Shown here one piece after another: positions 134-33,733 of a stretch of 64,000 bases of DNA; position 1 is the stretch's first letter, and every line of letters starts with the position of its first letter. This stretch comes from an uncultured Gammaproteobacteria bacterium (GTDB lineage Bacteria > Patescibacteriota > Microgenomatia > UBA8517), in contig CAZMSJ010000001.1 in assembly GCA_964568925.1 (NCBI GenBank), positions 81,907 through 145,906 on the forward strand, given 5' to 3'. The notes under the pieces are model-generated. The model did no database searches. It was not told the DNA's origin and was given only the letters and a program-made list of their open reading frames with translations. Made by a program: the position numbers and the translations under genes.

Positions 134-481
134 TTAGATTGTTGGAATAGTAAAGTTCAAAATACTTACTCCAAAAATGCTTTCTACCAAAGTTGCAATT
201 GCCCAGGCAGAAAAAATAATTACGAGCCCAATCAAAGCTGCAGTAATTTTACCTCGAGCTGATTCTGTTGATGCTTTGTCTCCACCAGAGAGAATCCATT
301 GTAATCCTCCGATTATTAACATAAAAAAGAATATAAGACCTGCAACGACAATAACTCCGTTAATAGCAAAGGTAATGAAACGTTGCACAGTAAAAGTTCC
401 TAAAGATGCATTCGTACTTCCTGGGTTTAGATCAATCGAACTTCCTTTTGTTTGTGCGAATACTGTAGAAAATAAATTCAT
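134..481 (-). CDS. Small two-TM pilin-like protein (TrbC/VirB2-type 'T4SS pilin'-like), paralog 1 of 9
   Basis: Two hydrophobic helices flank the motif LSGGDKASTESARGKITAALIGLV, which is shared by all nine tandem paralogs. The ORF-track start at 493 is a GTG inside the AGGAGGTG Shine-Dalgarno sequence, so the in-frame ATG at 481 (11 nt after GGAGG) is preferred. Confidence 0.6.
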   Translation of the reverse strand: MNLFSTVFAQTKGSSIDLNPGSTNASLGTFTVQRFITFAINGVIVVAGLIFFFMLIIGGLQWILSGGDKASTESARGKITAALIGLVIIFSAWAIATLVESIFGVSILNFTIPTI

Positions 482-627
482 ATCATATGTCACCTCCTTT
501 TAGAAATCTCACTTTTTGTGAAAAATCGTAGAGTTTAGCGTATCTTGAGCTGAAAGTCAAGGATAGAGGCCTATCTATTAGTTATTTATCGCGTATTTTG
601 ACCAGAGAAGTCAAGAGGGAGACTCAG

Positions 628-969
628 TTACTTTGCAAGAATTGGAGTGAGATCAACATTAATTAAGTTGATACCAAAGATTGATTGCAGAAGTTTTGCA
701 ACAGCATACACACTTACTAAAACTACCAATCCTGTTATTGCTTGCACAATTTGAGAACGGGCACTTTCTACTTGTCCTTTATCACCACCAGATGTTATCC
801 ATCGAATTCCACCAAGGAGGAACATAAAAAAGAAAGCTAAGAATCCAACAACAAATAGGAGAGTAACCATTTGTTGAATAAAATTTGAAACAACGGTAAC
901 TCCATCTTGCCCAGGTCCGCCTTTGTCTATTATTAAGTTGGTAACGTCAGCTAGTACTACAGAATACAT
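628..969 (-). CDS. Pilin-like two-TM protein, paralog 2
   Basis: Carries TSGGDKGQVESARSQIVQAITGLV between two TM helices. It starts 3 nt after the upstream paralog's stop. Confidence 0.6.
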   Translation of the reverse strand: MYSVVLADVTNLIIDKGGPGQDGVTVVSNFIQQMVTLLFVVGFLAFFFMFLLGGIRWITSGGDKGQVESARSQIVQAITGLVVLVSVYAVAKLLQSIFGINLINVDLTPILAK

Positions 970-972
970 AAA

Positions 973-1344
973 TTATTGGTTTCTTAATGCTTGAATTTGA
1001 GTATTAATTCCTAATATGTCGAAACCTAAAACTCTTCCAATTAAGCTAATAATTGCAACCGCAAATATCACAATGACTAAACCGGTTATTCCTGCTGAAA
1101 TTCGCTTTCTTGCAGTCTCGTATGCCCCTTTGTCACCACCGGACGTGATTATCCCAATAGCACCGATTAAAAAGATGAAGATAAACCATATACCTGCAAT
1201 TACTGTCATTACCCCAATTATTGTAGACAAAAGCATCTCTAATTGACTGCCAGGATTTGAACCAGGAAGAAAAATTCCTCCGGCAGGTCCTGTATATCCA
1301 CCACCTGGGCCAAAACGAAGAACAGCTGCAATTTGATTTGTCAT
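973..1344 (-). CDS. Pilin-like two-TM protein, paralog 3
   Basis: Carries TSGGDKGAYETARKRISAGITGLV between two TM helices. It is tightly packed in the same-strand array. Confidence 0.6.
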   Translation of the reverse strand: MTNQIAAVLRFGPGGGYTGPAGGIFLPGSNPGSQLEMLLSTIIGVMTVIAGIWFIFIFLIGAIGIITSGGDKGAYETARKRISAGITGLVIVIFAVAIISLIGRVLGFDILGINTQIQALRNQ

Positions 1345-1354
1345 ATATAAGTCT

Positions 1355-1699
1355 TTAGATAGTTAATGTTGGGTTAAGTAGAGCATCTGCTCTTCCATAG
1401 ATAATAAGACCAATGACAGATGCTAACAAAAATGACCCAACCAAAAATACCAAACCAATAATCGTCTGATAAATTTTGGCCCATGCTGATTCCATTCCTT
1501 TTGGATTGTCACCTGCACTCATGAACGCGTATCCTGCTAGTACAAAGTTAAAGAGGGCGTACAAACCTCCAAGCATAATAATGAGATTTAAAATGAGCTG
1601 AATTAATCTTCCCGGTCCGGTGTCTACTGTACCAAATTGTCCAACAGCGTCAGGTGGCGCAATTCTGCCAAATACTTGGAGAAGAGGAAAGATGTTCAT
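1355..1699 (-). CDS. Pilin-like two-TM protein, paralog 4
   Basis: Carries the variant motif MSAGDNPKGMESAWAKIYQTIIGLV with the same two-TM architecture. Confidence 0.55.
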   Translation of the reverse strand: MNIFPLLQVFGRIAPPDAVGQFGTVDTGPGRLIQLILNLIIMLGGLYALFNFVLAGYAFMSAGDNPKGMESAWAKIYQTIIGLVFLVGSFLLASVIGLIIYGRADALLNPTLTI

Positions 1700-1729
1700 A
1701 TGTTTAATAAATAATACCCTGTTTTAAAG

Positions 1730-2074
1730 TTAGACGCCACTTTGTGTTCCACGAATAAACCCTGGTGCAGTAAAAAATTCAACTCCAACTAGTCTCTGAA
1801 TTATCGCGATAATCCAATATGCACAAAATACTACGAGGAAACCAACGAGTGCATAGGTAATGGCCTGTTTTCCTTGTGCAGCACCCTTTGGGTCATTTCC
1901 ACCAGCACTTGAGATCATCATGAAACCTCCACCAACAAGAAGAAACAACAAGATAAGTCCTGCAAGGACAAGGCCACCAGCCATGATTGTAGTAATAAAA
2001 TCTCCAATACCTTTTGTTTGACCAAAAGGGGAACCAAATGTTTGACCAATATTAACCAACGCAAGTTTTTCCAT
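1730..2074 (-). CDS. Pilin-like two-TM protein, paralog 5
   Basis: Carries SSAGGNDPKGAAQGKQAITYALVGF between two TM helices. Confidence 0.55.
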   Translation of the reverse strand: MEKLALVNIGQTFGSPFGQTKGIGDFITTIMAGGLVLAGLILLFLLVGGGFMMISSAGGNDPKGAAQGKQAITYALVGFLVVFCAYWIIAIIQRLVGVEFFTAPGFIRGTQSGV

Positions 2075-2078
2075 AGAT

Positions 2079-2441
2079 TTAAAATGTTTGTGTAATTCCT
2101 TGTGCCCCTAAGATGAGACCTACAATCTGTACAATCCAGTATGCACAAAAAACGATAATAAAACCAACGATTGCATTTGTGAGTTTCTGTTTGTTTGCAT
2201 TTACGGCTCCAGGATCTCCCTGTGAGAGCATTAAACCAATACCAGCAGAAATACTATATAAAACAATTATTGCACCTGCGATAAAGAATACTAATGTGGA
2301 AATTCCATATTGACCAGTAAAGACATCAGAGATGTTTCCTCCTGCAAAACGGAAACCAGGAATACTCTTTTCAAGCGTGTTGAAAGTGTTTTTGTCAAAA
2401 GGGTTTGGTGCCGTTGCTTGTGCGAGTAGAATGCTAAACAT
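2079..2441 (-). CDS. Pilin-like two-TM protein, paralog 6
   Basis: Carries LSQGDPGAVNANKQKLTNAIVGF between two TM helices. Confidence 0.55.
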   Translation of the reverse strand: MFSILLAQATAPNPFDKNTFNTLEKSIPGFRFAGGNISDVFTGQYGISTLVFFIAGAIIVLYSISAGIGLMLSQGDPGAVNANKQKLTNAIVGFIIVFCAYWIVQIVGLILGAQGITQTF

Positions 2442-2453
2442 AGTTTTAGTATA

Positions 2454-3296
2454 TCAAAAAAGACCTAAGATATTTACGCCGATTACTCTCAAGAGGAAAA
2501 TACTAAAGATAATAAGGATTAGCCCAGAAACTGCTGAGGTTAAGAGTGACTTTCCTTCAGTGAGCTTTGCTGGTTCACCTGAAGAGGTTAAAATCTTAAA
2601 TCCTGCAAGCAGGAACATGAAGAAGGTAAACCCTCCACCGATTCCTAAGAGCCAAACTAAGAAGAAGCTTGTTAGTCGGTCAAGCACGTTAATTGGAATA
2701 CAACCAATCGCAGTTTGAACCCCATCACCACTTTTCTGAGCCTTACCAGTTTTCGTGTTACAACCACCATCAAATCCACGGTCTACTGCACCACAGTTAT
2801 TGAAGCATTGTGTCTGACTACTATATTGTCCATTCTTTTGTGGTTCACACCCTGCCACACCACACGCCCAGTGTGTTCCACCACTTTGGCAGATTGCAGA
2901 ACAGTCCGCTCGTGTATCGAATGTGCAATCTTGATTCTGTGGATCTGCACATGGGGTGCATGTCCCGTTTGAATTACATTGGTGGCGAACTGGAGCCGGA
3001 GTAGGGCCAGTTGGGTTTGTTTGGATACAGGTAAAGGGAGGTCTGTTTTGGCATGCAGAGACTGTCATGTCTTGTGGAGCCATTGCACATTCATTTCCAA
3101 CGTCATATCCACCAGCGGTATCACAGGTATAACTTGATCCCGATCCCATTGGTACACAGATATATACGCTTCCGGTTGGATCCAGTTGTGCAGTGCACTT
3201 GTAGGTGCCTTGTGCCGAAACGCCAGACAAAGACAAACTCAAAAGCACTAAAAAAGATGCAATACCGATGGCCAGGTGGATTCCCTTTTTATACAT
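2454..3296 (-). CDS. Cys-rich ectodomain fused to a C-terminal pilin-like two-TM module (paralog 7)
   Basis: Has an N-terminal signal/TM segment (IHLAIGIASFLVLLSLSLSGVSA). I counted 18 Cys in the ~190-aa ectodomain. The linker TAIGCIPIN is followed by the pilin module (TSSGEPAKLTEGKSLLTSAVSGL). Confidence 0.6.
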   Translation of the reverse strand: MYKKGIHLAIGIASFLVLLSLSLSGVSAQGTYKCTAQLDPTGSVYICVPMGSGSSYTCDTAGGYDVGNECAMAPQDMTVSACQNRPPFTCIQTNPTGPTPAPVRHQCNSNGTCTPCADPQNQDCTFDTRADCSAICQSGGTHWACGVAGCEPQKNGQYSSQTQCFNNCGAVDRGFDGGCNTKTGKAQKSGDGVQTAIGCIPINVLDRLTSFFLVWLLGIGGGFTFFMFLLAGFKILTSSGEPAKLTEGKSLLTSAVSGLILIIFSIFLLRVIGVNILGLF

Positions 3297-3303
3297 ATAT
3301 CTA

Positions 3304-4212
3304 TTAAAACAGACCGAGGATATTTACACCAATTAAGCGCAATGCAAAGATTGAGAAGACAATTAAGATGAGTCCTGAAACAGCTGAGGTTAAGAGCTCC
3401 TGGCCAGCTGAAAGCTTTTTTGGGTCGCCAGAGGAGGTGAGTATTTGAAACCCTGCTGTGAGAATCATAATGAAAGCGATTCCACCGCCAATACCAACTA
3501 ACCACCTCATGAAAAATGAAGTCATTATCGTTGCATTATCAATTGGAATACACCCAATCGCAGTTGGTATTCCTTTGCCACCACCAGCGACATTACACGT
3601 ATCAACTGCAGTTATCTGTGACTGACCACCACCACTTGGAGCTGCACAAATACCTGATCTGCATGACGCTCCTGTTTGTGAACAGGTTGCTTGTCCTGCA
3701 GCGTTTCCTGTTGGGCAGCATGTTTGTCCTGTTCCACCACAGGCGCAGTAGTAGGTACTCGCGGACAAGAGACTACTGGGACAGTTTGATGGGCACAGAT
3801 TTGAAAACGAAGCAGTAACGGCACCACAGGATAATGAGTTATTTCCCGTTACTGTTTCAGCGACAAAAGTACCACAACTAAATGGGGTAGCCGCTCCATC
3901 AGTTATAAGGACTCGGTACACACCAGATGTTCCAATCGCAGGTACATTTACGCTAAAGGTGTTGTTCGTTATGGTTATTGGTGCTGCAAAGATACTACTG
4001 TTTGCACTATTAAATACTGAGACACTTGTTATTGAAGAAGCTGCCGTGCATCCTGAACCACTCACGGTAAAGCCAGCTGTTGTTGCGGCACTGGGAGGAG
4101 TTATCTCGCATCCGCTGCAAGTCATTGCATGAATAGAAGATGTTGTTTGAAATAAAAGCACTAAAAAAGTAAGGAAGCTAAAAATACCAAATCGTGTTTT
4201 ACGTGCATGCAT
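3304..4212 (-). CDS. Cys-rich / Ig-like ectodomain fused to a C-terminal pilin-like module (paralog 8)
   Basis: Signal peptide (FGIFSFLTFLVLLFQTTSSIHA) and 16 Cys by my count. The C-terminal 80 aa are nearly identical to paralog 9. The start is set at Met18 of the track ORF (ATG at 4212), downstream of the TGCTAAAAT box at 4242-4250. Confidence 0.6.
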   Translation of the reverse strand: MHARKTRFGIFSFLTFLVLLFQTTSSIHAMTCSGCEITPPSAATTAGFTVSGSGCTAASSITSVSVFNSANSSIFAAPITITNNTFSVNVPAIGTSGVYRVLITDGAATPFSCGTFVAETVTGNNSLSCGAVTASFSNLCPSNCPSSLLSASTYYCACGGTGQTCCPTGNAAGQATCSQTGASCRSGICAAPSGGGQSQITAVDTCNVAGGGKGIPTAIGCIPIDNATIMTSFFMRWLVGIGGGIAFIMILTAGFQILTSSGDPKKLSAGQELLTSAVSGLILIVFSIFALRLIGVNILGLF

Positions 4213-4241
4213 ACTATATAGATATCTCTCTGTTAGCCTAA

Positions 4242-4250
4242 ATTTTAGCA
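4242..4250 (-). promoter_or_regulatory. Extended -10 promoter element TGCTAAAAT (minus strand)
   Basis: Plus-strand ATTTTAGCA equals TGnTAAAAT on the minus strand, 29 nt upstream of the ATG at 4212. The same 9-mer occurs at 5203-5211 and 39778-39786 in equivalent positions. Confidence 0.5.
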
Positions 4251-4290
4251 CATACACATACAACTTTCGGAATGAAGAATCTCCTCTCCA

Positions 4291-5196
4291 TTAGAAGAGG
4301 CCGAGGATGTTTACTCCAATGAGTCTCAATATAAAGATTGAGAAAATAATTAATATCAGGCCTGAAACAGCAGAGGTTAAGAGTTCTTGCCCTGTAGAGA
4401 GTCTCTTTGGGTCGCCAGAGGAGGTGAGTATTTGAAATCCTGCAGCAAGGATCATAATGAAAGCGATTCCTCCGCCTATACCTAAGAGCCATCTCATGAC
4501 GAAGGCAGTGAGGGCTGTAACATTTTCAATTGGTACACAGCCAACTGCAGTTGGAATACCTTGGCCACCGCCAGCTGCATCACAGGTTGCTGCTTTTGTT
4601 GATTGTTTGGTACCAGTTCCGGAGCTCCCAAGAAGACTATTTGGTAGACAGCACTTGTTGGTACCAACACTACAACTTCCACTTATCGGTGTCTCATCAG
4701 TTGCACATGTGGCTTTACATGCTCCCTGGAAATTAGTACAAGCTTGTGGGTTTGATGTTGCTGGTGCAATACAGTTTGTCCTACAGTCAGCTTGGCTTGA
4801 TGCTGTTTGGTCGCAATCAGCAACTGAGTTATTAGGAATATCATCACATATTTGACAAGATTTTGAACCTGATGAGTCTGTTACACAGTTATTTCTTGTT
4901 TGTATTGGTTGGCAGGGGATAAAAAGTGGGTTAGGGCAGGACTGTTGTCTACAATAAGTAAAAAGGTCAGTTGAAGGAGCTTTGTACCCTGGAGCACAAC
5001 TTGATGCAAATGTCCCATCCGGTGCGTTTTGACTCTCACACATTCCTGTTCCATCAGAGTAAACACAGACAATGCATCCACTAGTTTCATTTCCTTGACA
5101 CCTACTTGCTTGTGCAAAGGTTGTCTTTGCTGATAGGCTAAGCATTCCAAAGAGAAACAGTGTGATAATTACTGCTCGTTTCATGAAAGTTTCCAT
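4291..5196 (-). CDS. Cys-rich ectodomain fused to a C-terminal pilin-like module (paralog 9)
   Basis: Signal peptide (AVIITLFLFGMLSLSAKTTFA) and 22 Cys by my count. The linker GIPTAVGCVPIEN is followed by the pilin module TSSGDPKRLSTGQELLTSAVSGL. The start is set at the ATG at 5196, 6 nt from the -10 box. Confidence 0.6.
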   Translation of the reverse strand: METFMKRAVIITLFLFGMLSLSAKTTFAQASRCQGNETSGCIVCVYSDGTGMCESQNAPDGTFASSCAPGYKAPSTDLFTYCRQQSCPNPLFIPCQPIQTRNNCVTDSSGSKSCQICDDIPNNSVADCDQTASSQADCRTNCIAPATSNPQACTNFQGACKATCATDETPISGSCSVGTNKCCLPNSLLGSSGTGTKQSTKAATCDAAGGGQGIPTAVGCVPIENVTALTAFVMRWLLGIGGGIAFIMILAAGFQILTSSGDPKRLSTGQELLTSAVSGLILIIFSIFILRLIGVNILGLF

Positions 5197-5202
5197 ACGC
5201 AA

Positions 5203-9743: not shown

Positions 9744-10199
9744 ATGAAAATATACGAAAACAAAAAAGTACTGTTTGATTATGATGTCTTAGAAAAGCTT
9801 GAGGCTGGAATTGTCTTAAATGGAGCTGATGCGTCCGCTTTGCGCCATGGGCGGGTTGACCTTACCCATTCATATGTAAAAGTCATTAATCACGAGTTTT
9901 TCTTGGTTAACGCCCATATTGGACAAGAGGAAATGGGCTCAACACTCTCAACCAGAAGCAGAAAGCTTTTGGTACACGCCGAGGAGCTCGTTACGTGGGA
10001 GAGCAAGGTGAAGCGTGAAACCTTGACCATTCTGCCCTTGAGCCTGTATAATACCCACAAATACTATAAGGTTGAAATTGGCCTTTGTCGCTCCAGGAAA
10101 AAGAGTGGAAAACGAGAAGTTCTTAAGAAACGAGATATTGCTCGTGACATTGCCCGTGAATTTCGAGGTGACAAAGGAAACGATGACCGCCGTGACTAG
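9744..10199 (+). CDS. smpB: SsrA-binding protein SmpB
   Basis: Typical SmpB sequence (NKKVLFDYDVLEKLEAGIVLNG...SRKLLVHAEEL...LTILPLSLY) with a basic C-terminal tail. It lies immediately upstream of tmRNA. Confidence 0.9.
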   Translation: MKIYENKKVLFDYDVLEKLEAGIVLNGADASALRHGRVDLTHSYVKVINHEFFLVNAHIGQEEMGSTLSTRSRKLLVHAEELVTWESKVKRETLTILPLSLYNTHKYYKVEIGLCRSRKKSGKREVLKKRDIARDIAREFRGDKGNDDRRD

Positions 10200-10213
10200 T
10201 GTTTTTCATGTTT

Positions 10214-10584
10214 GGGGACGTCCCGGTTTCGACGGGAAGCACGTTGACCCTAACTGCGAGCCGAGTGTGAATTATCACTTGTAAAAACTAATTCAAAAAC
10301 AAACGACAACGATAACGAAGTCGTTGCGAGTTCAGGGTACGCATACGCGTTCGCCTAAGCCGCTGTCGTAAGGAGAGGAACCTCACCACTCCCTTAACGG
10401 CATATACCCGTGTGAGGTGCCACTTCCTCTGTTGGTTAACGGAGCTGTAAGTGAAAGACAAGTAACCTTACTTTTAGCGCATTTGTGTATTTAGTTCGCT
10501 TTAAGGACATCTTTTAAATACACTACGCTTGTAGATGTTTTGGCATGTACTTTTCGGACGAGGGTTCGACTCCCTCCGTCTCCA
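10214..10584 (+). ncRNA. ssrA: tmRNA (SsrA)
   Basis: The 5' end GGGGACG pairs with the 3' end CGTCTCC, including the G3:U wobble that is the alanine identity element. A T-arm GGGTTCGACTCCC is present. The internal tag frame ends ...ASSGYAYAFA with TAA at 10356-10358. A terminal CCA is not fully encoded. Confidence 0.85.
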
Positions 10585-10595
10585 CAGATAAAAAG

Positions 10596-11337: not shown

Positions 11338-11422
11338 TGGCGGAGGGTACAGGGGTCGAACCTGTTAGAGCTTGCGCTCACTAGTTTTCAAGACTAGCGC
11401 ATTACCGTCCTGCCCACCCTCC
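11338..11422 (-). tRNA. tRNA-Ser(UGA)
   Basis: Hand fold: acceptor GGAGGGT/ACCCTCC, anticodon stem CTAGT/ACTAG, loop CTTGAAA, long variable arm, T-loop TTCGACC, G73, and CCA encoded. Confidence 0.85.
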
Positions 11423-11523: not shown

Positions 11524-11608
11524 GGAGGCGTAGTCCAGTGGTCCAAGACAATGGTTTGCTAAACCATGACTCGTAAGAGTCTCGCGAGTTCGAATCTCGC
11601 CGCCTCCG
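11524..11608 (+). tRNA. tRNA-Ser(GCU)
   Basis: Hand fold: acceptor GGAGGCG/CGCCTCC, anticodon stem ATGGT/ACCAT, loop TTGCTAA, long variable arm GACTCGTAAGAGTCTC, and G73. Confidence 0.85.
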
Positions 11609-11657
11609 CACGAGTACTTCTTGACTTAATCTTCGGGTTTAATTAGGATTATTTTAA

Positions 11658-12401
11658 ATGGACAGAACTTATTTTGGTGGTACTTTGGGGCGGAGTCGAG
11701 GTGGTCACAATTCTTGGGAAAAAAGAATAGCAGACCCAGTTTATTATCGTAAAATTGGTTGTGTACTTCCGAATGTGTTCAGATATCCAGAACGGAATAA
11801 TCCTTATTTCGCAGAATTTGTTGGCATAGTTCTTGGTGATGGAGGACTAACCAATAGCCAACTTAAAATAACACTCAATCGAGAAAAAGATTTTGAGTAT
11901 GTTTATTATGTTCAATCGCTTATTCATCGATTATTTGGATATCTTCCTTCAGTTCATGAGCGAAAAGATTCATTAGCAACAGTCTTGACTGTTAGTGGAA
12001 TTAATTTTGTCAACTTCTTAAAAGAGTCGGGTTTGTTTGTAGGGAATAAGGTTTGCCAGCAAGTTGGTGTTCCATCTTGGATACAAGAAGATCTTGGGTT
12101 ATCACAATTTTGTATTCGAGGGCTGATGGATACCGATGGGTGTATTTTTGAGAACAGGTATATGTCTCATGGAAGATGGTATATATACAAAAAATTAGCA
12201 TTTTCGAATCGATCAACTCCTTTACTTACATTTTTTAGAAATACTCTTGTTAAAAATGGCTTGCACCCCGTTATGTACCAAAACAAGCAGGTTAGACTCT
12301 GTAGTGAGCGAGAAACGTTGATATATCTTGAAAAGATTGGAAGTTCAAACCCACGAGTAAATCAGTTCAAATCTTGCTATAATAGTGCCACAAGAGTTTA
12401 A
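11658..12401 (+). CDS. LAGLIDADG-family homing endonuclease (double-motif), free-standing
   Basis: Two dodecapeptide motifs are present: FAEFVGIVLGDGGL and IRGLMDTDGCIF. It sits between two tRNA genes with its own TTGACT-17-TAGGAT promoter-like sequence at 11623-11651. Confidence 0.8.
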   Translation: MDRTYFGGTLGRSRGGHNSWEKRIADPVYYRKIGCVLPNVFRYPERNNPYFAEFVGIVLGDGGLTNSQLKITLNREKDFEYVYYVQSLIHRLFGYLPSVHERKDSLATVLTVSGINFVNFLKESGLFVGNKVCQQVGVPSWIQEDLGLSQFCIRGLMDTDGCIFENRYMSHGRWYIYKKLAFSNRSTPLLTFFRNTLVKNGLHPVMYQNKQVRLCSERETLIYLEKIGSSNPRVNQFKSCYNSATRV

Positions 12402-12433: not shown

Positions 12434-12518
12434 GGAGAAGTCCCATAGTGGCCTAGTGGAGCGGTTTACTAAACCGCCGTATCGAAAGATACCGTGGGTT
12501 CGAATCCCACCTTCTCCG
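12434..12518 (+). tRNA. Class II (Ser-type) tRNA with apparent anticodon ACU
   Basis: Hand fold: acceptor GGAGAAG/CTTCTCC, D-stem CCA/TGG, anticodon stem GCGGT/ACCGC, 7-nt loop TTACTAA (positions 34-36 = ACT), variable arm GTATC-GAAA-GATAC, T-arm GTGGG/CCCAC, and G73. Confidence 0.7.
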
Positions 12519-12572
12519 CACGGATCAACTTCATGATGTGGCCCGAACACTTCGTTTGGGATATAATAGGGA

Positions 12573-13094
12573 ATGCCCGAAGGAGAGAAGACTGAAGAGA
12601 CACCACGAAAAAAGCCAATTCCAGAGGAAAAGCTTTTTAGTTGGGTTGAAAAATCCCGTCCGTTTGAAAGACGTTCCCGTGATTTTTATATTTCTTTGAT
12701 GTCTGTCGCTGTTCTTTTTGGCTTATTGTTCTTTGTTATCGAAGGCCCAATGCCAGTAATCTTACTCGCAGCTCTTGTCTTTTTGTTTTATGTATTAAGT
12801 ACAACGGAGCCAGAGCAGGTTACCTATGAAGTGACAAACAAAGGTATTCGAATGGCTGGACGGCTAACTGAATGGAGTAAGATGGGTCGTTTCTGGTTTA
12901 CCGATCGGTTAAGTCACCGATTATTAATCATTGAAACATCGGTCATTCCAGGAAGACTTGAACTAGTGATTAATAGTGAAATTGAAGGACAGCTTGAAAA
13001 GATTTTGTCTGACTATTTAGTTAATGAGGAAGTGCCCCCAAGTTTCTTTGACAAAGCTGCCAGTTGGGCAAGCATGCGTCTTCCTCAAAAGTAA
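12573..13094 (+). CDS. Membrane protein, function unknown
   Basis: 173-aa ORF with two adjacent TM helices (ISLMSVAVLFGLLFFVIEGPMPVILLAALVFLFYVL). TATAAT at 12562-12567 lies 5 nt upstream of the ATG. Confidence 0.55.
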   Translation: MPEGEKTEETPRKKPIPEEKLFSWVEKSRPFERRSRDFYISLMSVAVLFGLLFFVIEGPMPVILLAALVFLFYVLSTTEPEQVTYEVTNKGIRMAGRLTEWSKMGRFWFTDRLSHRLLIIETSVIPGRLELVINSEIEGQLEKILSDYLVNEEVPPSFFDKAASWASMRLPQK

Positions 13095-13112: not shown

Positions 13113-13187
13113 GTTCTCGTAGCTCAATGGATAGAGTAGCGGCTTGCGGAGCCGTTGATCCCAGTTCGAATCTGGGCGGGAACACCA
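13113..13187 (+). tRNA. tRNA-Arg(GCG)
   Basis: Hand fold: acceptor GTTCTCG/CGGGAAC, anticodon stem GCGGC/GCCGT, loop TTGCGGA, T-arm CCCAG/CTGGG, A73, and CCA encoded. Confidence 0.8.
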
Positions 13188-13194
13188 TGTGACT

Positions 13195-13278
13195 GGAGGG
13201 TTGTCCGAGCGGTTCAAGGAGCTGGTTTCGAAAACCAGTGGACGCAAGTCCTCACAGGTTCGAATCCTGTACCCTCCG
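13195..13278 (+). tRNA. tRNA-Ser(CGA)
   Basis: Hand fold: acceptor GGAGGGT/ACCCTCC, anticodon stem CTGGT/ACCAG, loop TTCGAAA, long variable arm, and G73. Confidence 0.85.
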
Positions 13279-13363
13279 CAGACACCTCGCCACAAATATT
13301 GACAGTTTTGTTTATAATCCTTCATTAAGAGAAGCAAATTTTTTGCTATAGTGACATTTACGT

Positions 13364-15492: not shown

Positions 15493-15578
15493 GGAGGAGT
15501 CGGATAGTGGCCTATTCCACGCGATTGGAAATCGCGGAGCGAAAGCTCTCGTGGGTTCAAATCCCACCTCCTCCGCCA
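15493..15578 (+). tRNA. tRNA-Ser(GGA)
   Basis: Hand fold: acceptor GGAGGAG/CTCCTCC, anticodon stem CGCGA/TCGCG, loop TTGGAAA, long variable arm, T-loop TTCAAAT, G73, and CCA encoded. Confidence 0.85.
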
Positions 15579-20261: not shown

Positions 20262-20333
20262 GCTTCCGTAGCTTAACGGATAAAGTATCAGTTTCCGGAA
20301 CTGATGATAGTGGTTCGATTCCACTCGGGAGCA
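20262..20333 (+). tRNA. tRNA-Arg(CCG)
   Basis: Hand fold: acceptor GCTTCCG/CGGGAGC, anticodon stem TCAGT/ACTGA, loop TTCCGGA, T-arm AGTGG/CCACT, and A73. Confidence 0.8.
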
Positions 20334-20356
20334 CCTTGTGTTTGTAAACGTTTCTC

Positions 20357-27129: not shown

Positions 27130-28671
27130 CTACCGGGGGAGCCAGGCATCTGTTATCCGAACCATGTCTCGCCTTATAACAACATCAAAGGCAGGCGTGT
27201 AAGTGATATTGACGATTTTCTTATCTTCAATCCAGATTTTCTCCACAAACCAGCTTAAAAAATCTTTTCTCTCGGTTTCAGTAAATGCTTTGTATAGCTT
27301 TGGTAGTTGTCGCAGAAAGGCAATAATTGTTTCTATCTTCTCTTCATCAAGATTCACAGATGGCTTGTTGAGTTTTGCAATTTCAGCTTCAACTCCTTTG
27401 AGTTCATCTTTCAGAGGAACATACTTTTGTTGAATACGCTCCTGTGGGATAGTTTCAGCAATAATTTGATCTTCTAGCTTATCCATTTTCTTCTCAACAA
27501 TTGTTTTGCGGGCAATCAAAGACTGGATTTTACTAGGAATGTCTTTGCCTTGCTCATGCATATACTCTAGCAATTCAGTTCTTAATGCTTTGAAAAATCT
27601 CTCATCAAAATCAATTGCAGCTATCCAATCCTCAAGTTGTTTATGGATTTTATTCATTGGCGCATAGGGTTGGCTGCATTCCTTGCCTTTGTTCTTGGAG
27701 CCTGTACAGCGATAGTAAAGAAAGATCTTACCATTTTTCTTAATATGTTGCTCTCCAGTCATTAGACTTCCACATTCATTACAAAATACCAACCCTGCCA
27801 AAAAGAAGTTATGTTTTCTCTCGCGATTTGCACCGTTATTGTGTTTTGCTAGTATCTCTTCTGACTTTTTAATATCTCCCATAGTTATAATCGCCCCATG
27901 TTGTCCTTTGTAAATTTTACCGCAATAATACACTTTTCCAGCGTATCTCACATCAGTTAACATCCGATGGATTGCATTTGCTCTAACTCTTTTTCCTTGA
28001 GGGGTGCGAAAGCCCTCCTCGTAAAGCTCATTCTCAAGGGAGTATATCGAGTGACTACCAGTATGGAAACGCCTAAAGACTTCTTTTACAAAATACTCAC
28101 GTTCTTTGTCAATCTTCCAAGGCTCACCCTTTTTGAAAGAGTTGAGATAGCCAATAACTGCCATCCCAGGCTGAAATCCTTTTTCGGCAAGAGCGACCAT
28201 GGTTCTTTTGGTCTTTTCTCCTGTAATTTCTCTTTGAAGTTGATTGGCCCCAGCCATTACTAAATCAACGAATTTTCCTACAGGATCATCTCCGAAATTG
28301 GGTTGTTGAGTGGCAATGAGTTGCACTCCGCATTTCTTAAGAATTGTTTTGACTGCTAAGTGATCTTGTGCATCACGAGCAAAACGATCTGTCTCTTCGA
28401 GAAGTACTGCATCAACATCTTTATCCTTTTGGCAACGCTCAAGCATTCGCATAAACTCAGGTCTGCCTGAAGTACTGCCTCCGCTTTTTCCACCATCCTT
28501 GAAGACTTCCAGAATATGCCAATTTCTTTCTCGAGCAAATTTTACTAAACGATCTACCTGGTCATCTAGTGAATGCCCCTCTTGTACTTGACGATCTGTA
28601 CTTACGCGAGCATAGAGGAGGACATTGCTTATTACTTTTTGTTCATCTTCGATGTTTTGTTTGTATGTCAT
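27130..28671 (-). CDS. Large serine recombinase (integrase)
   Basis: Resolvase catalytic motif LLYARVSTDRQVQEGHSLDDQ, a recombinase domain, a zinc ribbon (CNECGSLMTG...YYRCTGSKNKGKEC), and a C-terminal coiled coil. The last five codons and the stop are encoded by the tRNA acceptor/T-arm sequence. An alternative TTG start lies at 28704. Confidence 0.88.
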   Translation of the reverse strand: MTYKQNIEDEQKVISNVLLYARVSTDRQVQEGHSLDDQVDRLVKFARERNWHILEVFKDGGKSGGSTSGRPEFMRMLERCQKDKDVDAVLLEETDRFARDAQDHLAVKTILKKCGVQLIATQQPNFGDDPVGKFVDLVMAGANQLQREITGEKTKRTMVALAEKGFQPGMAVIGYLNSFKKGEPWKIDKEREYFVKEVFRRFHTGSHSIYSLENELYEEGFRTPQGKRVRANAIHRMLTDVRYAGKVYYCGKIYKGQHGAIITMGDIKKSEEILAKHNNGANRERKHNFFLAGLVFCNECGSLMTGEQHIKKNGKIFLYYRCTGSKNKGKECSQPYAPMNKIHKQLEDWIAAIDFDERFFKALRTELLEYMHEQGKDIPSKIQSLIARKTIVEKKMDKLEDQIIAETIPQERIQQKYVPLKDELKGVEAEIAKLNKPSVNLDEEKIETIIAFLRQLPKLYKAFTETERKDFLSWFVEKIWIEDKKIVNITYTPAFDVVIRRDMVRITDAWLPR

Positions 28672-28798
28672 AAACTTTGAAAGCCGCCTGGTTGAACTCA
28701 ACAAGAATCGCTTCTGTTGTCCAGACGGCCATCAAAAAAAGCGGTTCTTAATGTTGAGTTCATAATTATTCAACCATGTTTTAAGATCGGGTGTCAAA

Positions 28799-30385
28799 TC
28801 AACTTCGTCTTCCAATGTCAACAAGCTCATTTTCTACCCACTTTTCATTTGCTTGTATGTCATTAGGTAGCAGCAATTCTTCAGCCTTATAAAAGCTACA
28901 ATCCCAGAATCCTTTATTTAATTCAACATAGGTCTTTATAACTGATTCAAATGATTCATTGTGGTCAGCAATAATTGTGTTTATCCTCATATTTGCACTT
29001 GTGATTATGCTTAATGGGGAACCGAGATCTCTTGGTAAAAGTTCCATCCCATCAAAATACTTTTGCTCAAGTTTTTCTATGAGTACGATCCTGTCTTTGA
29101 GGTACTGAATGTTCTCCTTGGCTCTTTCAATAAAGTTTGTGATGACTTTGCGATATAGTGGGTCTTGGAATTTAACAATTGCAGTTTCTGCGTCATAATC
29201 TGTTTTAATAAGTTTGAGAGGCATAAGTATTTTGGATAATTTCACTAAGTCTCGTTGGTTTTTATAGGAATGGAGAATTGATCCAAAGTCGTCGTGAGGG
29301 GGCAAAATTGCAATTGGATGGTCACGCTTGTCAATGATCCTGTGATCTCCTGCAAAAACTACACCTTTATCTTTAACAAAGCGCAGTTCAATGCAATCAT
29401 CAGACAAAGGATTGTAGCCTTTCATACTTGAACCTTCTTCACCCGCATATTTTTGATAGCGACCATCCCAAGCATAGTAACTTCCTGCCTCAACTCCTTC
29501 AATTTCCTCTGTATGGAATTGTCTTTTTTTACGGTTATATCTTTTGACTTGTCCTTTAATCCATTTGAGTTTTCCTTCAGCTATTGCTTTTTGAATACGA
29601 ACTTTTTCCTCCTCGACAGTTTTTAGCCACTTATCGTATTCTTCTTTATCTGGAGCTACAAGTGCGTCTGGCTGTTGTTCTTCAATGTATTTTGCTAGTT
29701 CCTCATCGCTCATGTTTTCGTATTTGCAATAATCCTTCCAGAGAAGTGGCTCTTTGCCTAAGCGGTTCTTTTGTCTCAAATAATGTGACAATCCCTCTTT
29801 TTTATCTTTTATAGTGTCAGCGATGAGATCTTCTTTTGATTTTCCATATCTTTCAATCCACCAGTACCATTCATCCAAAAGGTCATACTCCGTAACATAT
29901 TTTTCTTTAACAAGACGATAAAAGGCTTCCTGGTCAACTAATCCATGCCTACCATCAAGCGAGATGACCTCTTCTTTTATAGACTGCTTTGCTTGCTTCA
30001 AACCTTTATCGTAATCTTCTTTTTTAACTAACACTGGCATACGATCAAGGTAGTTTGATAATTGGTCCATCATAGGTGAGGTGGCAATCAGATACATTAT
30101 GGTTGAGATTCGTAGGTGTGCATTCTCAAGCTCAAGTAGAGTAATTTCCATCATTGGAACGATATGAGTCCAGACCTCGTCCTTAACACTAATAAGAGAG
30201 TTATATTCTTTTGCCTGATGAGATGGGCATGCGGAAACAATAGCAGCCACTTCTGTTCTCAATCCTTCAGATAGTTCACCATCTTTTGCTTCCTTCATCG
30301 CTTTCTGCTGAATTTGGATGACTAGTTTAGCTCGCTCTTTCGCAGTCATTAAAGGTGATAGTTTGGCAAAGTTTAATTCTGTCAT
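28799..30385 (-). CDS. Hypothetical 528-aa protein (element cargo)
   Basis: Long uninterrupted ORF. Its start overlaps the upstream gene's stop by 4 nt. No motif recognised. Confidence 0.6.
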   Translation of the reverse strand: MTELNFAKLSPLMTAKERAKLVIQIQQKAMKEAKDGELSEGLRTEVAAIVSACPSHQAKEYNSLISVKDEVWTHIVPMMEITLLELENAHLRISTIMYLIATSPMMDQLSNYLDRMPVLVKKEDYDKGLKQAKQSIKEEVISLDGRHGLVDQEAFYRLVKEKYVTEYDLLDEWYWWIERYGKSKEDLIADTIKDKKEGLSHYLRQKNRLGKEPLLWKDYCKYENMSDEELAKYIEEQQPDALVAPDKEEYDKWLKTVEEEKVRIQKAIAEGKLKWIKGQVKRYNRKKRQFHTEEIEGVEAGSYYAWDGRYQKYAGEEGSSMKGYNPLSDDCIELRFVKDKGVVFAGDHRIIDKRDHPIAILPPHDDFGSILHSYKNQRDLVKLSKILMPLKLIKTDYDAETAIVKFQDPLYRKVITNFIERAKENIQYLKDRIVLIEKLEQKYFDGMELLPRDLGSPLSIITSANMRINTIIADHNESFESVIKTYVELNKGFWDCSFYKAEELLLPNDIQANEKWVENELVDIGRRS

Positions 30386-30759
30386 TTTCGTTTTAATGTT
30401 GTTTTTCTTTCAAAAAGTACACTTTCAATCATTTCAATGCGTTCATCTAAGTTGGCATTCTCCATAGCTTTTAGAGCGTGGCTGCAAATATAGGCAATAG
30501 TGTTAGCAATTTGAGGAGGAATAGTGCCGCCTCTGACTCCGTTTATTGTTTCCTCCAAAATACTTACAACATCTGAAGGGTTTTTCATTGGTGCGGGAGG
30601 AAGGCTGAGTCTGTCTCTTTTGGACATCTTGCCTCCTTTGGCAACAGCCAAAGCGTGATCCTCGCGAGTATCAGGATTATGAGCAAAGCAATACTGAGAT
30701 TTCTTCATCGCGTTTGCCTGGCATTGTTCACCATTAGCGTTGACATAAGTACACCTCAT
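30382..30759 (-). CDS. Hypothetical protein with an N-terminal Cys/His cluster
   Basis: CTYVNANGEQCQANAMKKSQYCFAH is a CX9CX11CX2H pattern. The gene has 4-nt overlaps on both sides. Confidence 0.55.
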   Translation of the reverse strand: MRCTYVNANGEQCQANAMKKSQYCFAHNPDTREDHALAVAKGGKMSKRDRLSLPPAPMKNPSDVVSILEETINGVRGGTIPPQIANTIAYICSHALKAMENANLDERIEMIESVLFERKTTLKRK

Positions 30760-31250
30760 GATTTTTGGCCTCCTTTATTAGCAACAGTAGTGGGTGATAC
30801 CCACTCACATTCTTGTCCAAAGATGTCCTTGCAAGTAGCCAGAAGCTCGTTGTCAGACATAAAGTAAATCATTTGTCTTTCGCGGCCTTCGTCTTCAAGA
30901 AGCTCAATAAGTTTTAGGACATCGTTGTACTTCTTAACTTGAGTTTCCCTTTCTTGTTGATTGAAAAGATCAACACTTGCAACTTCTGGTTCAAGATTGC
31001 GAGCAAAGGCAGTGGCTTCTTCATATCTTGTAATAAGGATGTCGTTAGGCCATTCCTTCAGAAAGCGAATATCTTTGTATGTAGCTTCGTTTTCAGATTG
31101 AATTTGAAGACTTTGCAGTGCCTCTTTCAAAGCCTGAATAGTCTCGTTTCGTGCCCCAGCTTGCCTGGCGGCATCCAAGTTTGTTTGAGCCTTTTTAATC
31201 GCTGACTCAAGATTGGTAGATGTCTGAGTAGATATTGAGTGGATGTCCAT
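30756..31250 (-). CDS. Hypothetical 164-aa protein
   Basis: The ATG at 31250 is preceded by AAGGGAGG 11 nt upstream. It is the first gene of a translationally coupled triplet. Confidence 0.55.
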   Translation of the reverse strand: MDIHSISTQTSTNLESAIKKAQTNLDAARQAGARNETIQALKEALQSLQIQSENEATYKDIRFLKEWPNDILITRYEEATAFARNLEPEVASVDLFNQQERETQVKKYNDVLKLIELLEDEGRERQMIYFMSDNELLATCKDIFGQECEWVSPTTVANKGGQKS

Positions 31251-31289
31251 AACTACAAAATCCTCCCTTCTTGAAGCTGATAGCTAGAA

Positions 31290-31468
31290 CCTCGGTAGAT
31301 GTTTGTAACCAGAAGAGTAGTTAACAATAAAAATAATCTGTTTGTAACTAAGGATGTGTACTTTATATCCTTAACCCTCCTGCACATAGTAATGTCTACT
31401 GCTTTTTGCAGTTTCGTGCGTAATTGAGCTATAAATTGGTGTTTTGAATGTCTACTCATTGTCTACTT
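31290..31468. repeat. Cluster of short direct repeats (iteron-like) in the intergenic region downstream of the primase gene
   Basis: TGTCTACT occurs three times (31393-31400, 31449-31456, 31460-31467). TGTTTGTAAC occurs twice (31300-31309, 31339-31348). GGTAGATGT occurs twice (31215-31223, 31294-31302). Confidence 0.5.
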
Positions 31469-33733
31469 TTAAGTCATGTTGGGATCAATTCCATATCGCT
31501 TCATTAGTTCTTCAATAGTTTCTGGTTGGATTACATATCTCCAATATCCTTGGACTTTCTTGCCAATAATGCCAAAACGTTTAAGTGCTGCTCCTACACC
31601 ACGGCTGGTGAAGTATTGCTTTTGATCTTCTTCCAGAAATTCACTGGCTCGCTGTTTGATTTCCTTGTTAGTGATATATCCTAGGCTTGAAGTAGAGGTA
31701 AGCTCTCGTAGCGCTAGAAGGACCGCTGCATCAAAGTCCTCCAAATCAGATCCAGAAGTTTCCTGTGCTCTTCGAATAGCTTCTTCTTTAATCTGCTCAA
31801 AAGTTCCTGGCAGGTCTTTATCAAGAAGCTTGGCGATGCAAAGAAGTGGTCTCCAGAGTTCGTTTTGTCTGTTAAGCAATGCATTTACCTCTGGGTCGGA
31901 GTGATAGAAACCTGCGATTTCTTTTGCATAATCCAGTGCAAAGATATAAAGCAGAGAGCGCAAGTACTGCCAGTTTTCTGAACCTTCAGTAACAGCAAGA
32001 TTACCTTTCTCAGGGTTATTGGTTCTGACCATTGTAATAGTGATAGATCTGTCTTCGAGCACATTATCAAGACCTGAGATGTTGGCAATGGCTTTGGGGC
32101 TATAAATTTCAAATGATTCAATTTCAAAGTTACCCTTAGCTCCTTTTTTGACACGATATGCAGGAGCTCCTTGTTTGTATCCAGAATTAAGTAACTCCCG
32201 TAGCTCTTCCTTTTTAGTCTTGTCAGACAACTGCTCACTTTCATCCAATGCCAGCGTGCATCTTTTGGCCTCTACTATGCGAAAGAGTACTGATGGGGAG
32301 ATATTGCTTGAAAGAATTGCATTAAAAGCAAGTTTTTCAATTAAAAGTAAAGTTTTAGTTTTTCCACTTCTTTTTACTCCAACTAAATAGATATAAGGGA
32401 AGGCATCAAAAATTGGAAAAAGATAAGTTCCCATTATCCAAAGAGATAAAATATCGGCATCTGTATCATTTCGGAAATCAACAAACTTAAGAAGAGTCTG
32501 TCTTATTTCAATGAATGCAAGAGTGGAGGGAGAGGAAGTACTGCTCTCAAGAAACTTTCTAATATCTGACACACTCCAGCGGCTTATTTTGCCAGGAATT
32601 TTACTGACCTTTCTGACTGGCAAAATAGTATCCTTTATCGTTATTGTGCCCTTCTCAATAACAGTCTTTTCTTTATTGCTGGTGACAATAACGATTTTTG
32701 TCTTTTCCTTACCATCTATTTTTATTGGAAGAGGATTACCGATAAATAGTTGATCGTTATAGTAATCAAGTGCTGGATGTACGGCTTCTTCTAACTCTGA
32801 TTGAAGGATTTCAAAGTCTTTTGGCTTTATCTCCACAGTTTTTGCTTCGTCAAGCAATTTTTGGAAGTCATCTGGGGTCTTTTTAAGTTTTGCGAAGTAA
32901 TCACTTGTGTCGACTTTGTCATCTCTTTCTTGTGATAAGAGTACAATCTTTGCTCTTTTACCAAAATGTCTTCCTATTGCCTCTGCCCCTTGTTTTCCTG
33001 CATCATCAGTGTCGTAGCAAATGTAAATGGTGTCGATCCCATCAAATTCTGATACCCAGTCCTTTTTGAAAGTCGCAGCACCTGCTGTACCACTGACTGC
33101 TGGGAAACCATTTTGATTGGTAACAATTGCATCAAATTCTCCTTCTGTGATTACAACAAAAGAACTACCATTCTGCTTTACTTCTTCAAGGGTTGCGATA
33201 TTAAATAATGCAGCTTTACCACCTTTTTCATTCCACATTTTGTTGCCATCCTGTTTCTCAGGATCTCTTCTGTGGCGGACATTGATAAGGTTTCCTTCTT
33301 TATCAAATACTGGAATGGTTATACTTTTCCCATCCCAGCCAATTTGGTATTTAGTAATACTTTCATCAGTAATACCGCGTTGGTCTTTGAGGTAAGTTTG
33401 AATTCGCTCAGGTAATTGCTCGTGATATTGAGCTGCAAGGTTTTTATCAAGTTTGGTGGTATTTAACTTGGCTTTGTATTCAATCTTTTGTTTACCCTTT
33501 TTACTTTCAAGAATGGCTTCATCTTTTATGCCAAGGTTGTCAAGTAAATTTTGCCAGCTTCCTTTCATGCCACATTTGTGACACAGATAACAGCCCTCGG
33601 TATTGTGGACATACAAGTGGAATTTGGTGTCCTCACAGAAAGGACAGCAAATAATGGCTTCAGCGCCATCGGTTGAAGTCTTGTATGTTATACTGGTTTT
33701 TGATAGATAGTCTGTAACTGTTTTGTAAATCAT
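31469..33733 (-). CDS. Primase-type replication protein: zinc finger + Toprim + DUF3631-like P-loop domain
   Basis: Zinc ribbon CPFCEDTKFHLYVHNTEGCYLCHKCG; Toprim motifs VVITEGEFDAIV and CYDTDDAGKQGAE; Walker A GVKRSGKT; Walker B TLALDESE. Confidence 0.8.
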   Translation of the reverse strand: MIYKTVTDYLSKTSITYKTSTDGAEAIICCPFCEDTKFHLYVHNTEGCYLCHKCGMKGSWQNLLDNLGIKDEAILESKKGKQKIEYKAKLNTTKLDKNLAAQYHEQLPERIQTYLKDQRGITDESITKYQIGWDGKSITIPVFDKEGNLINVRHRRDPEKQDGNKMWNEKGGKAALFNIATLEEVKQNGSSFVVITEGEFDAIVTNQNGFPAVSGTAGAATFKKDWVSEFDGIDTIYICYDTDDAGKQGAEAIGRHFGKRAKIVLLSQERDDKVDTSDYFAKLKKTPDDFQKLLDEAKTVEIKPKDFEILQSELEEAVHPALDYYNDQLFIGNPLPIKIDGKEKTKIVIVTSNKEKTVIEKGTITIKDTILPVRKVSKIPGKISRWSVSDIRKFLESSTSSPSTLAFIEIRQTLLKFVDFRNDTDADILSLWIMGTYLFPIFDAFPYIYLVGVKRSGKTKTLLLIEKLAFNAILSSNISPSVLFRIVEAKRCTLALDESEQLSDKTKKEELRELLNSGYKQGAPAYRVKKGAKGNFEIESFEIYSPKAIANISGLDNVLEDRSITITMVRTNNPEKGNLAVTEGSENWQYLRSLLYIFALDYAKEIAGFYHSDPEVNALLNRQNELWRPLLCIAKLLDKDLPGTFEQIKEEAIRRAQETSGSDLEDFDAAVLLALRELTSTSSLGYITNKEIKQRASEFLEEDQKQYFTSRGVGAALKRFGIIGKKVQGYWRYVIQPETIEELMKRYGIDPNMT

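Follow-up and report, generated by a model that had tools for sequence, protein, structure and literature searches.

Since Crick's wobble paper, the near-absence of adenosine at the first anticodon position (A34) has counted as a rule, particularly for two-codon boxes. The 64,000-nt stretch of DNA analysed here (the window) carries a tRNA-Ser gene with the anticodon ACU, which places A34 in the box that the serine codons AGU and AGC share with AGA and AGG. This locus raises the question of whether the gene is a working tRNA, how widely such genes occur, and what an A34 would do in a split box.

A tRNA-Ser gene with an ACU anticodon

The window segment is bacterial chromosome with 40% G+C. Besides smpB, dnaG and a tmRNA gene, it has an array of T4SS-pilin genes, and ARAGORN counts eight RNA genes, tRNA-Ser(act) among them. 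Proteins encoded near the tRNA have homologues named Woesebacteria, Microgenomates or Patescibacteria, which places the organism among the CPR bacteria and probably within the Microgenomates. The tRNA cluster contains the following features, listed in their order along the DNA.

9744..10585 (+): smpB and the tmRNA gene; these form the conserved left end of the cluster and served as first synteny anchor (Pfam SmpB; tmRNA by ARAGORN and Rfam, 138 bits)
11338..11422 (-): tRNA-Ser(UGA) (ARAGORN, Rfam)
11524..11609 (+): tRNA-Ser(GCU), conventional, the G34 partner for the AGY box (ARAGORN; Rfam, 57.6 bits)
11658..12401 (+): free-standing LAGLIDADG homing-endonuclease ORF between the GCU and ACU genes (Pfam LAGLIDADG_3, LAGLIDADG_2)
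12434..12519 (+): tRNA-Ser(ACU), class II, G73, loop TTACTAA (ARAGORN; Rfam tRNA model; six identical assemblies)
12468..12470 (+): its anticodon A34-C35-T36 (direct reading; ARAGORN sets the anticodon at gene position 35)
12573..13094 (+): DUF5673-like membrane protein gene, the synteny anchor just downstream of the ACU gene (weak Pfam DUF5673; homologues named Woesebacteria/Patescibacteria)
13113..13187 (+): tRNA-Arg(GCG), with G34 where most bacteria carry A34 (ACG) (ARAGORN; Rfam, 64.4 bits)
13195..13279 (+): tRNA-Ser(CGA) (ARAGORN, Rfam)
15493..15578 (+): tRNA-Ser(GGA), the co-resident isoacceptor closest to the ACU tRNA, at 77% identity (ARAGORN; pairwise identity)

Further genes lie between tRNA-Ser(CGA) and tRNA-Ser(GGA) and again between the latter and tRNA-Arg(CCG), the last member in this order.

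The Rfam tRNA model (RF00005) matches positions 12434-12518 over its full length (1-71) with 50.6 bits (E=1.2e-8; gathering score 29), a score within the range of the four other tRNA-Ser genes of the window (46.8-57.6 bits), and the covariance model flags 0 non-canonical pairs. The tRNA has a 7-bp acceptor stem (GGAGAAG/CTTCTCC) with discriminator G73, a 3-bp D stem (CCA/TGG), the anticodon stem GCGGT/ACCGC, a variable arm that forms its own stem-loop (GTATC-GAAA-GATAC) and a canonical T arm (GTGGG-TTCGAAT-CCCAC). Within the anticodon loop TTACTAA, A34, C35 and T36 stand at 12468, 12469 and 12470. G73 and the acceptor end G1-C72/G2-C71/A3-U70 are identity elements of tRNA-Ser, and the class II tRNAs for Leu and Tyr carry A73; the window gene has these serine elements in common with the four other tRNA-Ser genes of the window. 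In every structural respect tested, it is an ordinary tRNA-Ser, and it is functional by every sequence-based criterion.

These results bear out the initial annotation of this DNA in its fold, its Ser identity and every structural detail, in the anticodon ACU with A34 at 12468, and in the two neighbours that it named, tRNA-Ser(GCU) and tRNA-Arg(GCG). The check by ARAGORN and a covariance model that it had proposed returns the anticodon act, a normal-range score and no sign of a pseudogene. Like bacterial tRNA-Ser(GCU), the ACU tRNA belongs to class II, has G73 and the same acceptor end, and serves the AGY box, and the two are usually encoded within a few hundred bases of each other. The loops differ at position 34 alone (TTACTAA versus TTGCTAA), so that the cognate codon of the A34 form is AGU instead of AGC.

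Compensatory change within the lineage

A single G-to-A change converts GCU into ACU, and the gene might therefore be a pseudogene or decaying copy, or else a GCU gene altered by a mistake in sequencing or assembly. The exact SmpB protein of the window is present on 20 public contigs, six of which, from different samples, span the ACU site, and the ACU tRNA is 100% identical in all six of these independent assemblies. Its identity to the local GCU tRNA is only 71%, which rules out a recent G34A mutant of the neighbouring gene. Two further relatives, found through SmpB alone at 81% identity (L011 and L012; an NCBI MAG and a JGI contig), carry Ser(ACU) at the same location. In these two relatives, the acceptor-stem pair A6-U67 has become G-C, the D-stem pair C11-G24 has become G-C and the anticodon-stem pair G29-C41 has become A-U; two T-stem pairs are changed compensatorily, and the variable arm is rebuilt with its pairing kept. 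All seven bases of the anticodon loop are constant. Compensated stems around a fixed loop are what selection on a tRNA leaves behind, and the pattern calls for purifying selection. With this compensatory evolution, six identical assemblies, 71% identity to the GCU gene and a covariance-model score in the normal range, a pseudogene or an error is barely credible.

The cluster in more distant relatives and its homing endonucleases

Through the DUF5673-like neighbour we retrieved seven distinct relatives at 49-59% identity, one of which is a complete 917-kb Woesebacteria genome. Most of the seven keep a cluster of smpB, tmRNA, Ser(UGA), Ser(GCU), the DUF5673 gene, Arg(GCG), Ser(CGA) and Ser(GGA), and tRNA-Arg(GCG) stands at the same place in all syntenic relatives. 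Ser(ACU) was not found in the cluster of these seven relatives and is thus either dispensable in them or located elsewhere; a universal CPR trait is rejected on the same ground. At this locus, the ACU gene is limited to the window's own clade. An arrangement of tRNA-Ser, DUF5673 and tRNA-Arg resembling that of the window is also found in Southlakia epibionticum (PMC10633639).

The 0.8-kb gap between the GCU and ACU genes results from the LAGLIDADG ORF inserted there, which is not part of the tRNA's function. In strains L001, L002, L004, L007 and L010, the GCU gene lies 17 nt upstream of the ACU gene. L001 and L002 have no LAGLIDADG gene in the GCU-ACU spacer; theirs is a different gene, 30% identical to that of the window, and sits on the opposite strand in the next spacer upstream. 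Three different free-standing LAGLIDADG genes thus occupy spacers of the Ser-tRNA cluster, at 11658-12401(+) in the window, at 11648-12295(-) in L001 and at 2892-3914(-) in L383, the last being a third such gene that a more distant relative has in the same spacer as the window's. Strains that share an identical SmpB do not have the same spacer filled, which marks the cluster as a homing hotspot.

A hotspot filled by different LAGLIDADG genes, and an ACU gene confined here to a narrow clade and lacking from the cluster of seven syntenic relatives, are what one might see if the tRNA were a nearly neutral passenger, delivered by a mobile element, homing-endonuclease conversion or a phage and, expressed or not, serving no selected role in the host. 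However, every stem is compensated and the loop is fixed, which argues for purifying selection while SmpB diverged by 19%.

Two other regions of the window also merit mention. The product of 27130-28704 is a large serine recombinase, and close to it is a primase-like protein (31469-33733) with Toprim, weak DUF3631 and zinc-ribbon matches, which suggests an integrated mobile element mid-window at 27130-33733(-). Nine consecutive small ORFs at 134-5202(-) have sister-contig counterparts that match T4SS_pilin (PF18895); this array is conserved, but copy and sequence vary among strains L001, L002 and L011.

A family of Ser(ACU) genes across bacterial genomes

One genome per GTDB species was scanned with the pattern GTTTACTAAAC, 14-30 bases, GTTCGAATC, which gave at least 120 loci. 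ARAGORN calls tRNA-Ser(act) in 117 of the 120 matches listed, with 116 distinct sequences. The survey of related CPR genomes that the initial annotation had recommended therefore shows Ser(ACU) recurring, mostly in Patescibacteria, in at least 117 genomes, and what looked like a one-off gene is a member of a large, previously unremarked family. Its statement that A34 in bacteria is normally confined to tRNA-Arg(ACG) proves too strict for this lineage, with Ser(ACU) in at least 117 species-level genomes and at least 120 viral contigs. The titles of the matches listed are mostly Patescibacteria (Paceibacteria, Nomurabacteria, Magasanikbacteria, Microgenomates, Levyibacteria, Roizmanbacteria, Collierbacteria and others); 26 listed records are titled Saccharibacteria and 16 Gammaproteobacteria or Pseudomonadales, and all 42 come from one third-party assembly series.

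Among the 16 records titled Gammaproteobacteria or Pseudomonadales, 13 have 38-44% G+C (full range 35-49%) and 10 have a window-type tRNA body. Several contigs with such titles are about 1 Mb long, and many have Microgenomates-type tRNA bodies (L020, L024, L029, L034, L040, L055, L062, L066, L073, L094, L103, L108, L116, L122 and L124). The Gammaproteobacteria and Pseudomonadales labels on these contigs look wrong.

In an alignment of the 116 listed sequences, the helices show 97-100% canonical pairing, except for the innermost variable-arm pair (80%). Several pair types occur at most positions of all five helices, and the variable-arm stem covaries; G73, G1-C72 and G2-C71 are invariant, and A3-U70 is present in 115 of the 116. 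Among the listed sequences, the family has a self-identity of 73% and is 55-58% identical to other Ser isoacceptors, while its members share 56-78%, never more than 78%, with the GCU tRNA of the same genome, from which they differ as a separate body lineage. These identities mark the ACU genes as old paralogues rather than repeated point mutants. A GCU tRNA lies in the same block as the ACU gene in 71 of the 117 listed genome loci. The closest ACU genes to that of the window, among the matches listed, are 87-90% identical and come from other CPR-like MAGs. The initial annotation had allowed for a mis-registered loop and for a decaying isoacceptor; both are excluded by the compensatory changes and by conservation over at least 116 distinct sequences, and a specialised isoacceptor is the option among those it offered that fits.

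Since the ACU arm was part of the pattern used to scan genomes and viral contigs, loop conservation in these scans is not independent evidence; the relatives found through SmpB and a GCU-anchored sample are independent. The latter comes from a metagenome scan anchored on the Paceibacteria-type tRNA-Ser(GCU) pattern, not on ACU. In this sample, Ser(ACU) is present in 56 of the 116 loci with a GCU gene and in 45 of the 83 GCU loci with at least 300 nt on both sides; in the 83-locus subset, the two genes are mostly 60-300 nt apart, on either strand. The arm GTTTACTAAAC, on which the sample was not selected, is found in 56 of its 57 ACU genes. These counts indicate that Ser(ACU) is common, and its anticodon arm unusually fixed, in the Paceibacteria-type clade.

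Another tRNA recurs in these neighbourhoods. tRNA-Ile(UAU) is frequent near Ser tRNAs in CPR loci (17 calls in L136-L255 and 4 in L016-L135), which suggests that a tRNA with U34, and not a CAU tRNA modified with lysidine, decodes AUA there.

Ser(ACU) genes are also found outside the CPR, at 2976-3066(-) of L023, 7429-7519(-) of L049 and 4909-4998(-) of L022. The context is ordinary and chromosomal in a Planctomycete contig with moeA and moaA, and likewise in a Verrucomicrobial contig, where dxs, icd and panE are its neighbours. There is also a nearly identical tRNA on a Phycisphaerales contig.

Ser(ACU) genes in viral contigs

The same pattern gave at least 120 loci in IMG/VR (L256-L375). ARAGORN calls Ser(ACU) in 120 of the 120 listed (89 distinct sequences), and 75 of these 120 hold 5-23 tRNAs in arrays typical of phages. 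Ser(GCU) is present in only 1 of the 120 listed viral loci, which suggests that ACU is favoured over GCU as the AGY-box anticodon of uncultivated phages. BLAST of a phage collection, a method blind to a single base, retrieved seven regions and found no cultured-phage Ser(ACU); in four of these seven regions, ARAGORN calls only Ser tRNAs with UGA or GCU.

The viral Ser(ACU) genes form a different sub-family. Among the matches listed, identity to the window gene reaches no more than 76% for viral genes as against 90% for CPR-like genomes, so a phage origin of the window gene is not supported. The frequency of Ser(ACU) in viral tRNA arrays could again be taken to favour a neutral passenger. Nevertheless, with the nearest relatives in CPR-like genomes, about half of the GCU-anchored CPR loci keeping the ACU gene and the compensated stems described above, we consider such a passenger improbable.

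Some bacterial titles in the genome scan touch on the viral set. Among MAG contigs titled Flavobacteriales and Pirellulales, L060 has a Ser(ACU) identical to that of the viral locus L268, and L106 has one that is near-identical to that of the viral locus L294 and adjoins tRNA-Gly(UCC). L060 and L106 may be phage contigs binned into bacterial MAGs.

Phage tRNAs have been proposed to stand in for host tRNAs that defence nucleases cleave, and the abundance of Ser(ACU) in phage tRNA arrays recalls these proposals. The tRNA could accordingly have a mainly non-decoding role, as an anticodon-nuclease decoy or substitute, a cell-wall aminoacyl donor or a regulatory RNA, the more so as tRNA-Ser(GCU) already covers both AGY codons and decoding does not strictly need ACU. 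But the T arm, in both its stem and its loop TTCGAAT, is fully canonical, as is the anticodon loop with U33 and A37, unlike in known non-ribosomal tRNAs, and the neighbourhood contains no pointer to a cell-wall transferase or a nuclease. This makes a non-decoding role very unlikely.

Meaning and usage of the AGN codons

The window contains 302 AGU, 146 AGC, 213 AGA and 62 AGG codons. AGA is used at SmpB positions 71 and 73, which are invariant Arg columns. Alignment of 29 pairs of orthologues shared with L011 and L012 sets AGA mainly opposite AGA, CGA, CGU and CGC (CGN/AGR), and AGU opposite AGU, AGC and UCN. The standard code, with AGA as Arg and AGU as Ser, thus holds. A reassignment of AGA to Ser, which would make inosine at position 34 (I34) harmless, is rejected since AGA stands in invariant Arg columns and exchanges with CGN. 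Because AGA is an Arg codon, I34 in Ser(ACU) would misread it, and the SmpB columns and orthologue alignments support the earlier warning that I34 risks Arg-to-Ser miscoding. AGU is the commoner of the two AGY codons in the window; a codon-usage signature for AGU was not found there, its share being 0.67 against 0.54-0.72 for the other U/C pairs.

The state of A34

tRNA-Arg(ACG) is the near-universal bacterial form and the one essential substrate of TadA, and the bacterial TadA target loop is U33-A34-C35-G36. Ser(ACU) resembles tRNA-Arg(ACG) in its encoded A34 and C35, its 7-nt loop, U33 and A37. In contrast, tRNA-Arg(ACG) is a class I tRNA of a four-codon box with G36 and is deaminated to I34, whereas Ser(ACU) belongs to a box split with Arg and its loop reads U33-A34-C35-U36. 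The boxes typical of I34 have synonymous U-, C- and A-ending codons, and AGN is not such a box, AGA being Arg.

In every CPR locus examined, CGN-box Arg tRNAs other than the C34 form (CCG) have GCG (more than 20 cases) and never ACG. TadA's essential substrate therefore seems missing in CPR loci, which implies TadA-free, archaeal-style CGN decoding. Arg(GCG) occurs alongside CCG in the window (13113-13187 and 20262-20335), L011, L012, L381-L390 and others. A motif scan of low power found no deaminase motif within the 64-kb window, and tblastn with an approximate E. coli TadA query, a weak test, found no TadA-like match in 1.06 Mb of DNA. For the complete genome of the cultivated Saccharibacterium S. 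epibionticum, Tables S1/S2 list a dCTP deaminase only, with no PF00383/PF14437 and no CDA-fold deaminase (PMC10633639). In E. coli, which has TadA, the A34 of an orthogonal ACU tRNA is not deaminated, and this tRNA reads AGU at 9.4% and AGG at 0.36%, with AGC and AGA below detection (PMC11066159).

Conversion of A34 to inosine by TadA or a relative would make Ser(ACU) a general AGY decoder, reading AGU, AGC and, weakly, AGA. A34 is the substrate position, E. coli deaminates engineered Phe-AAA and His-AUG split-box tRNAs, and some Lactobacillales TadA enzymes also modify tRNA-Leu(AAG) (bioRxiv 10.64898/2026.05.15.725136). Yet I34 would miscode conserved Arg AGA codons, and the GCU gene nearby (in 71 of 117 listed loci and in the window) would be redundant if I34 read AGC. 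In addition, position 36 of the loop is U where the TadA target has G, Arg(GCG) and never Arg(ACG) is found in CPR loci, the Southlakia annotation is without a CDA-fold deaminase (PMC10633639), and the ACU anticodon escapes deamination in E. coli (PMC11066159). We consider inosine unlikely at this position. The retention of GCU near ACU in most loci fits a division of labour better than an I34 reading both codons, and A34 most probably stays an unmodified adenosine.

In Mycoplasma and in mitochondria, an unmodified A34 can read a whole four-codon box, so Ser(ACU) may misread AGR codons to some extent. Superwobble of this kind is typical of a tRNA that decodes a four-codon box alone or for the most part, in the absence of a G34 isoacceptor; Ser(ACU) has a split box and an adjacent GCU gene. 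Like Mycoplasma tRNA-Thr(AGU), in which A34 is unmodified, and Lactobacillales tRNA-Leu(AAG), Ser(ACU) retains A34 over the long term in AT-rich, reduced or specialised genomes. Thr(AGU) and Leu(AAG) serve four-codon boxes and replace the G34 isoacceptor (bioRxiv 10.64898/2026.05.15.725136), whereas Ser(ACU) works in a two-codon box alongside its G34 partner.

Discussion

We propose, with a probability of about 0.7, that Ser(ACU) is a functional, Ser-accepting accessory isoacceptor for the AGY box that reads AGU by an A34:U pair, its A34 probably not being deaminated. The tRNA would be expressed and charged with serine, and ACU would pair with AGU by Watson-Crick geometry, while the neighbouring tRNA-Ser(GCU) would cover AGC and could wobble onto AGU. 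If A34 is unmodified, AGU would be read almost exclusively and the Arg codons AGA and AGG left alone. SerRS is expected to recognise its tRNAs by the acceptor end and the long variable arm and to disregard the anticodon, so that the step from G34 to A34 would cost nothing in charging. An old, widespread and patchy family would thus have arrived at, or been retained in, the smpB-tmRNA-tRNA(Ser) cluster of this lineage in a narrow clade only.

The pyrimidine-ending split boxes are those of Phe, Tyr, His, Asn, Asp, Cys, Ser-AGY and Ile (AUU/AUC), and to our knowledge serine alone among them has a synthetase that does not read the anticodon. For the other split-box amino acids, position 34 or its neighbours are identity elements. 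That ACU persists, and not AUU or AUG, would follow if SerRS ignores the anticodon. When overexpressed in E. coli, Ser-tRNA(ACU) was among the few split-box ANN tRNAs that improved growth parameters (bioRxiv 10.64898/2026.05.15.725136).

The closest known counterparts with the same anticodon were engineered in E. coli: Raval et al. (2026) used a Ser-tRNA(ACU), and Schmitt et al. (2024) an orthogonal M. jannaschii tRNA(ACU). These tRNAs were tolerated or beneficial, were not deaminated, and read AGU with little or no reading of AGC and AGA (Raval et al., 2026; Schmitt et al., 2024, PMC11066159). They are laboratory constructs, made since the anticodon was deemed absent in nature, whereas Ser(ACU) is a natural family under selection. 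A survey of 4,047 bacterial genomes in GtRNAdb found split-box A34 tRNAs only sporadically and the 15 non-ACG ANN anticodons essentially absent, and all ANN tRNAs were engineered in E. coli in the same study (bioRxiv 10.64898/2026.05.15.725136). A term search of a 2025 preprint on the tRNA genes of complete Patescibacteria genomes found no mention of Ser(ACU), and no description of it in CPR bacteria or phages was found in the full-text literature, where the bracketed form 'Ser(ACU)' is unmatchable and a mention could be missed. The family is broad and patchy, and apparently undescribed.

On balance, and with confidence a little above even, we regard Ser(ACU) as the first natural, lineage-wide family of split-box A34 tRNAs, an unmodified AGU-specific decoder selected in many Patescibacteria, some PVC bacteria and the tRNA arrays of many uncultivated phages, and permitted since SerRS ignores the anticodon. 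If true, this would contradict the view that split-box A34 tRNAs are sporadic, and would provide a natural system in which to test the avoidance of A34. A natural split-box A34 tRNA under clear purifying selection is thus present in over a hundred species-level genomes from a major bacterial radiation, and many viral contigs carry one as well. The Arg(GCG) that these lineages carry instead of Arg(ACG) also implies life without TadA. If A34 is indeed unmodified, its near-absence elsewhere would not be a hard decoding constraint, and anticodon recognition by the synthetases would become a candidate reason for the gap. Organisms would then also exist in which A34 decoding could be measured in vivo, and some Saccharibacteria are cultivable and genetically tractable.
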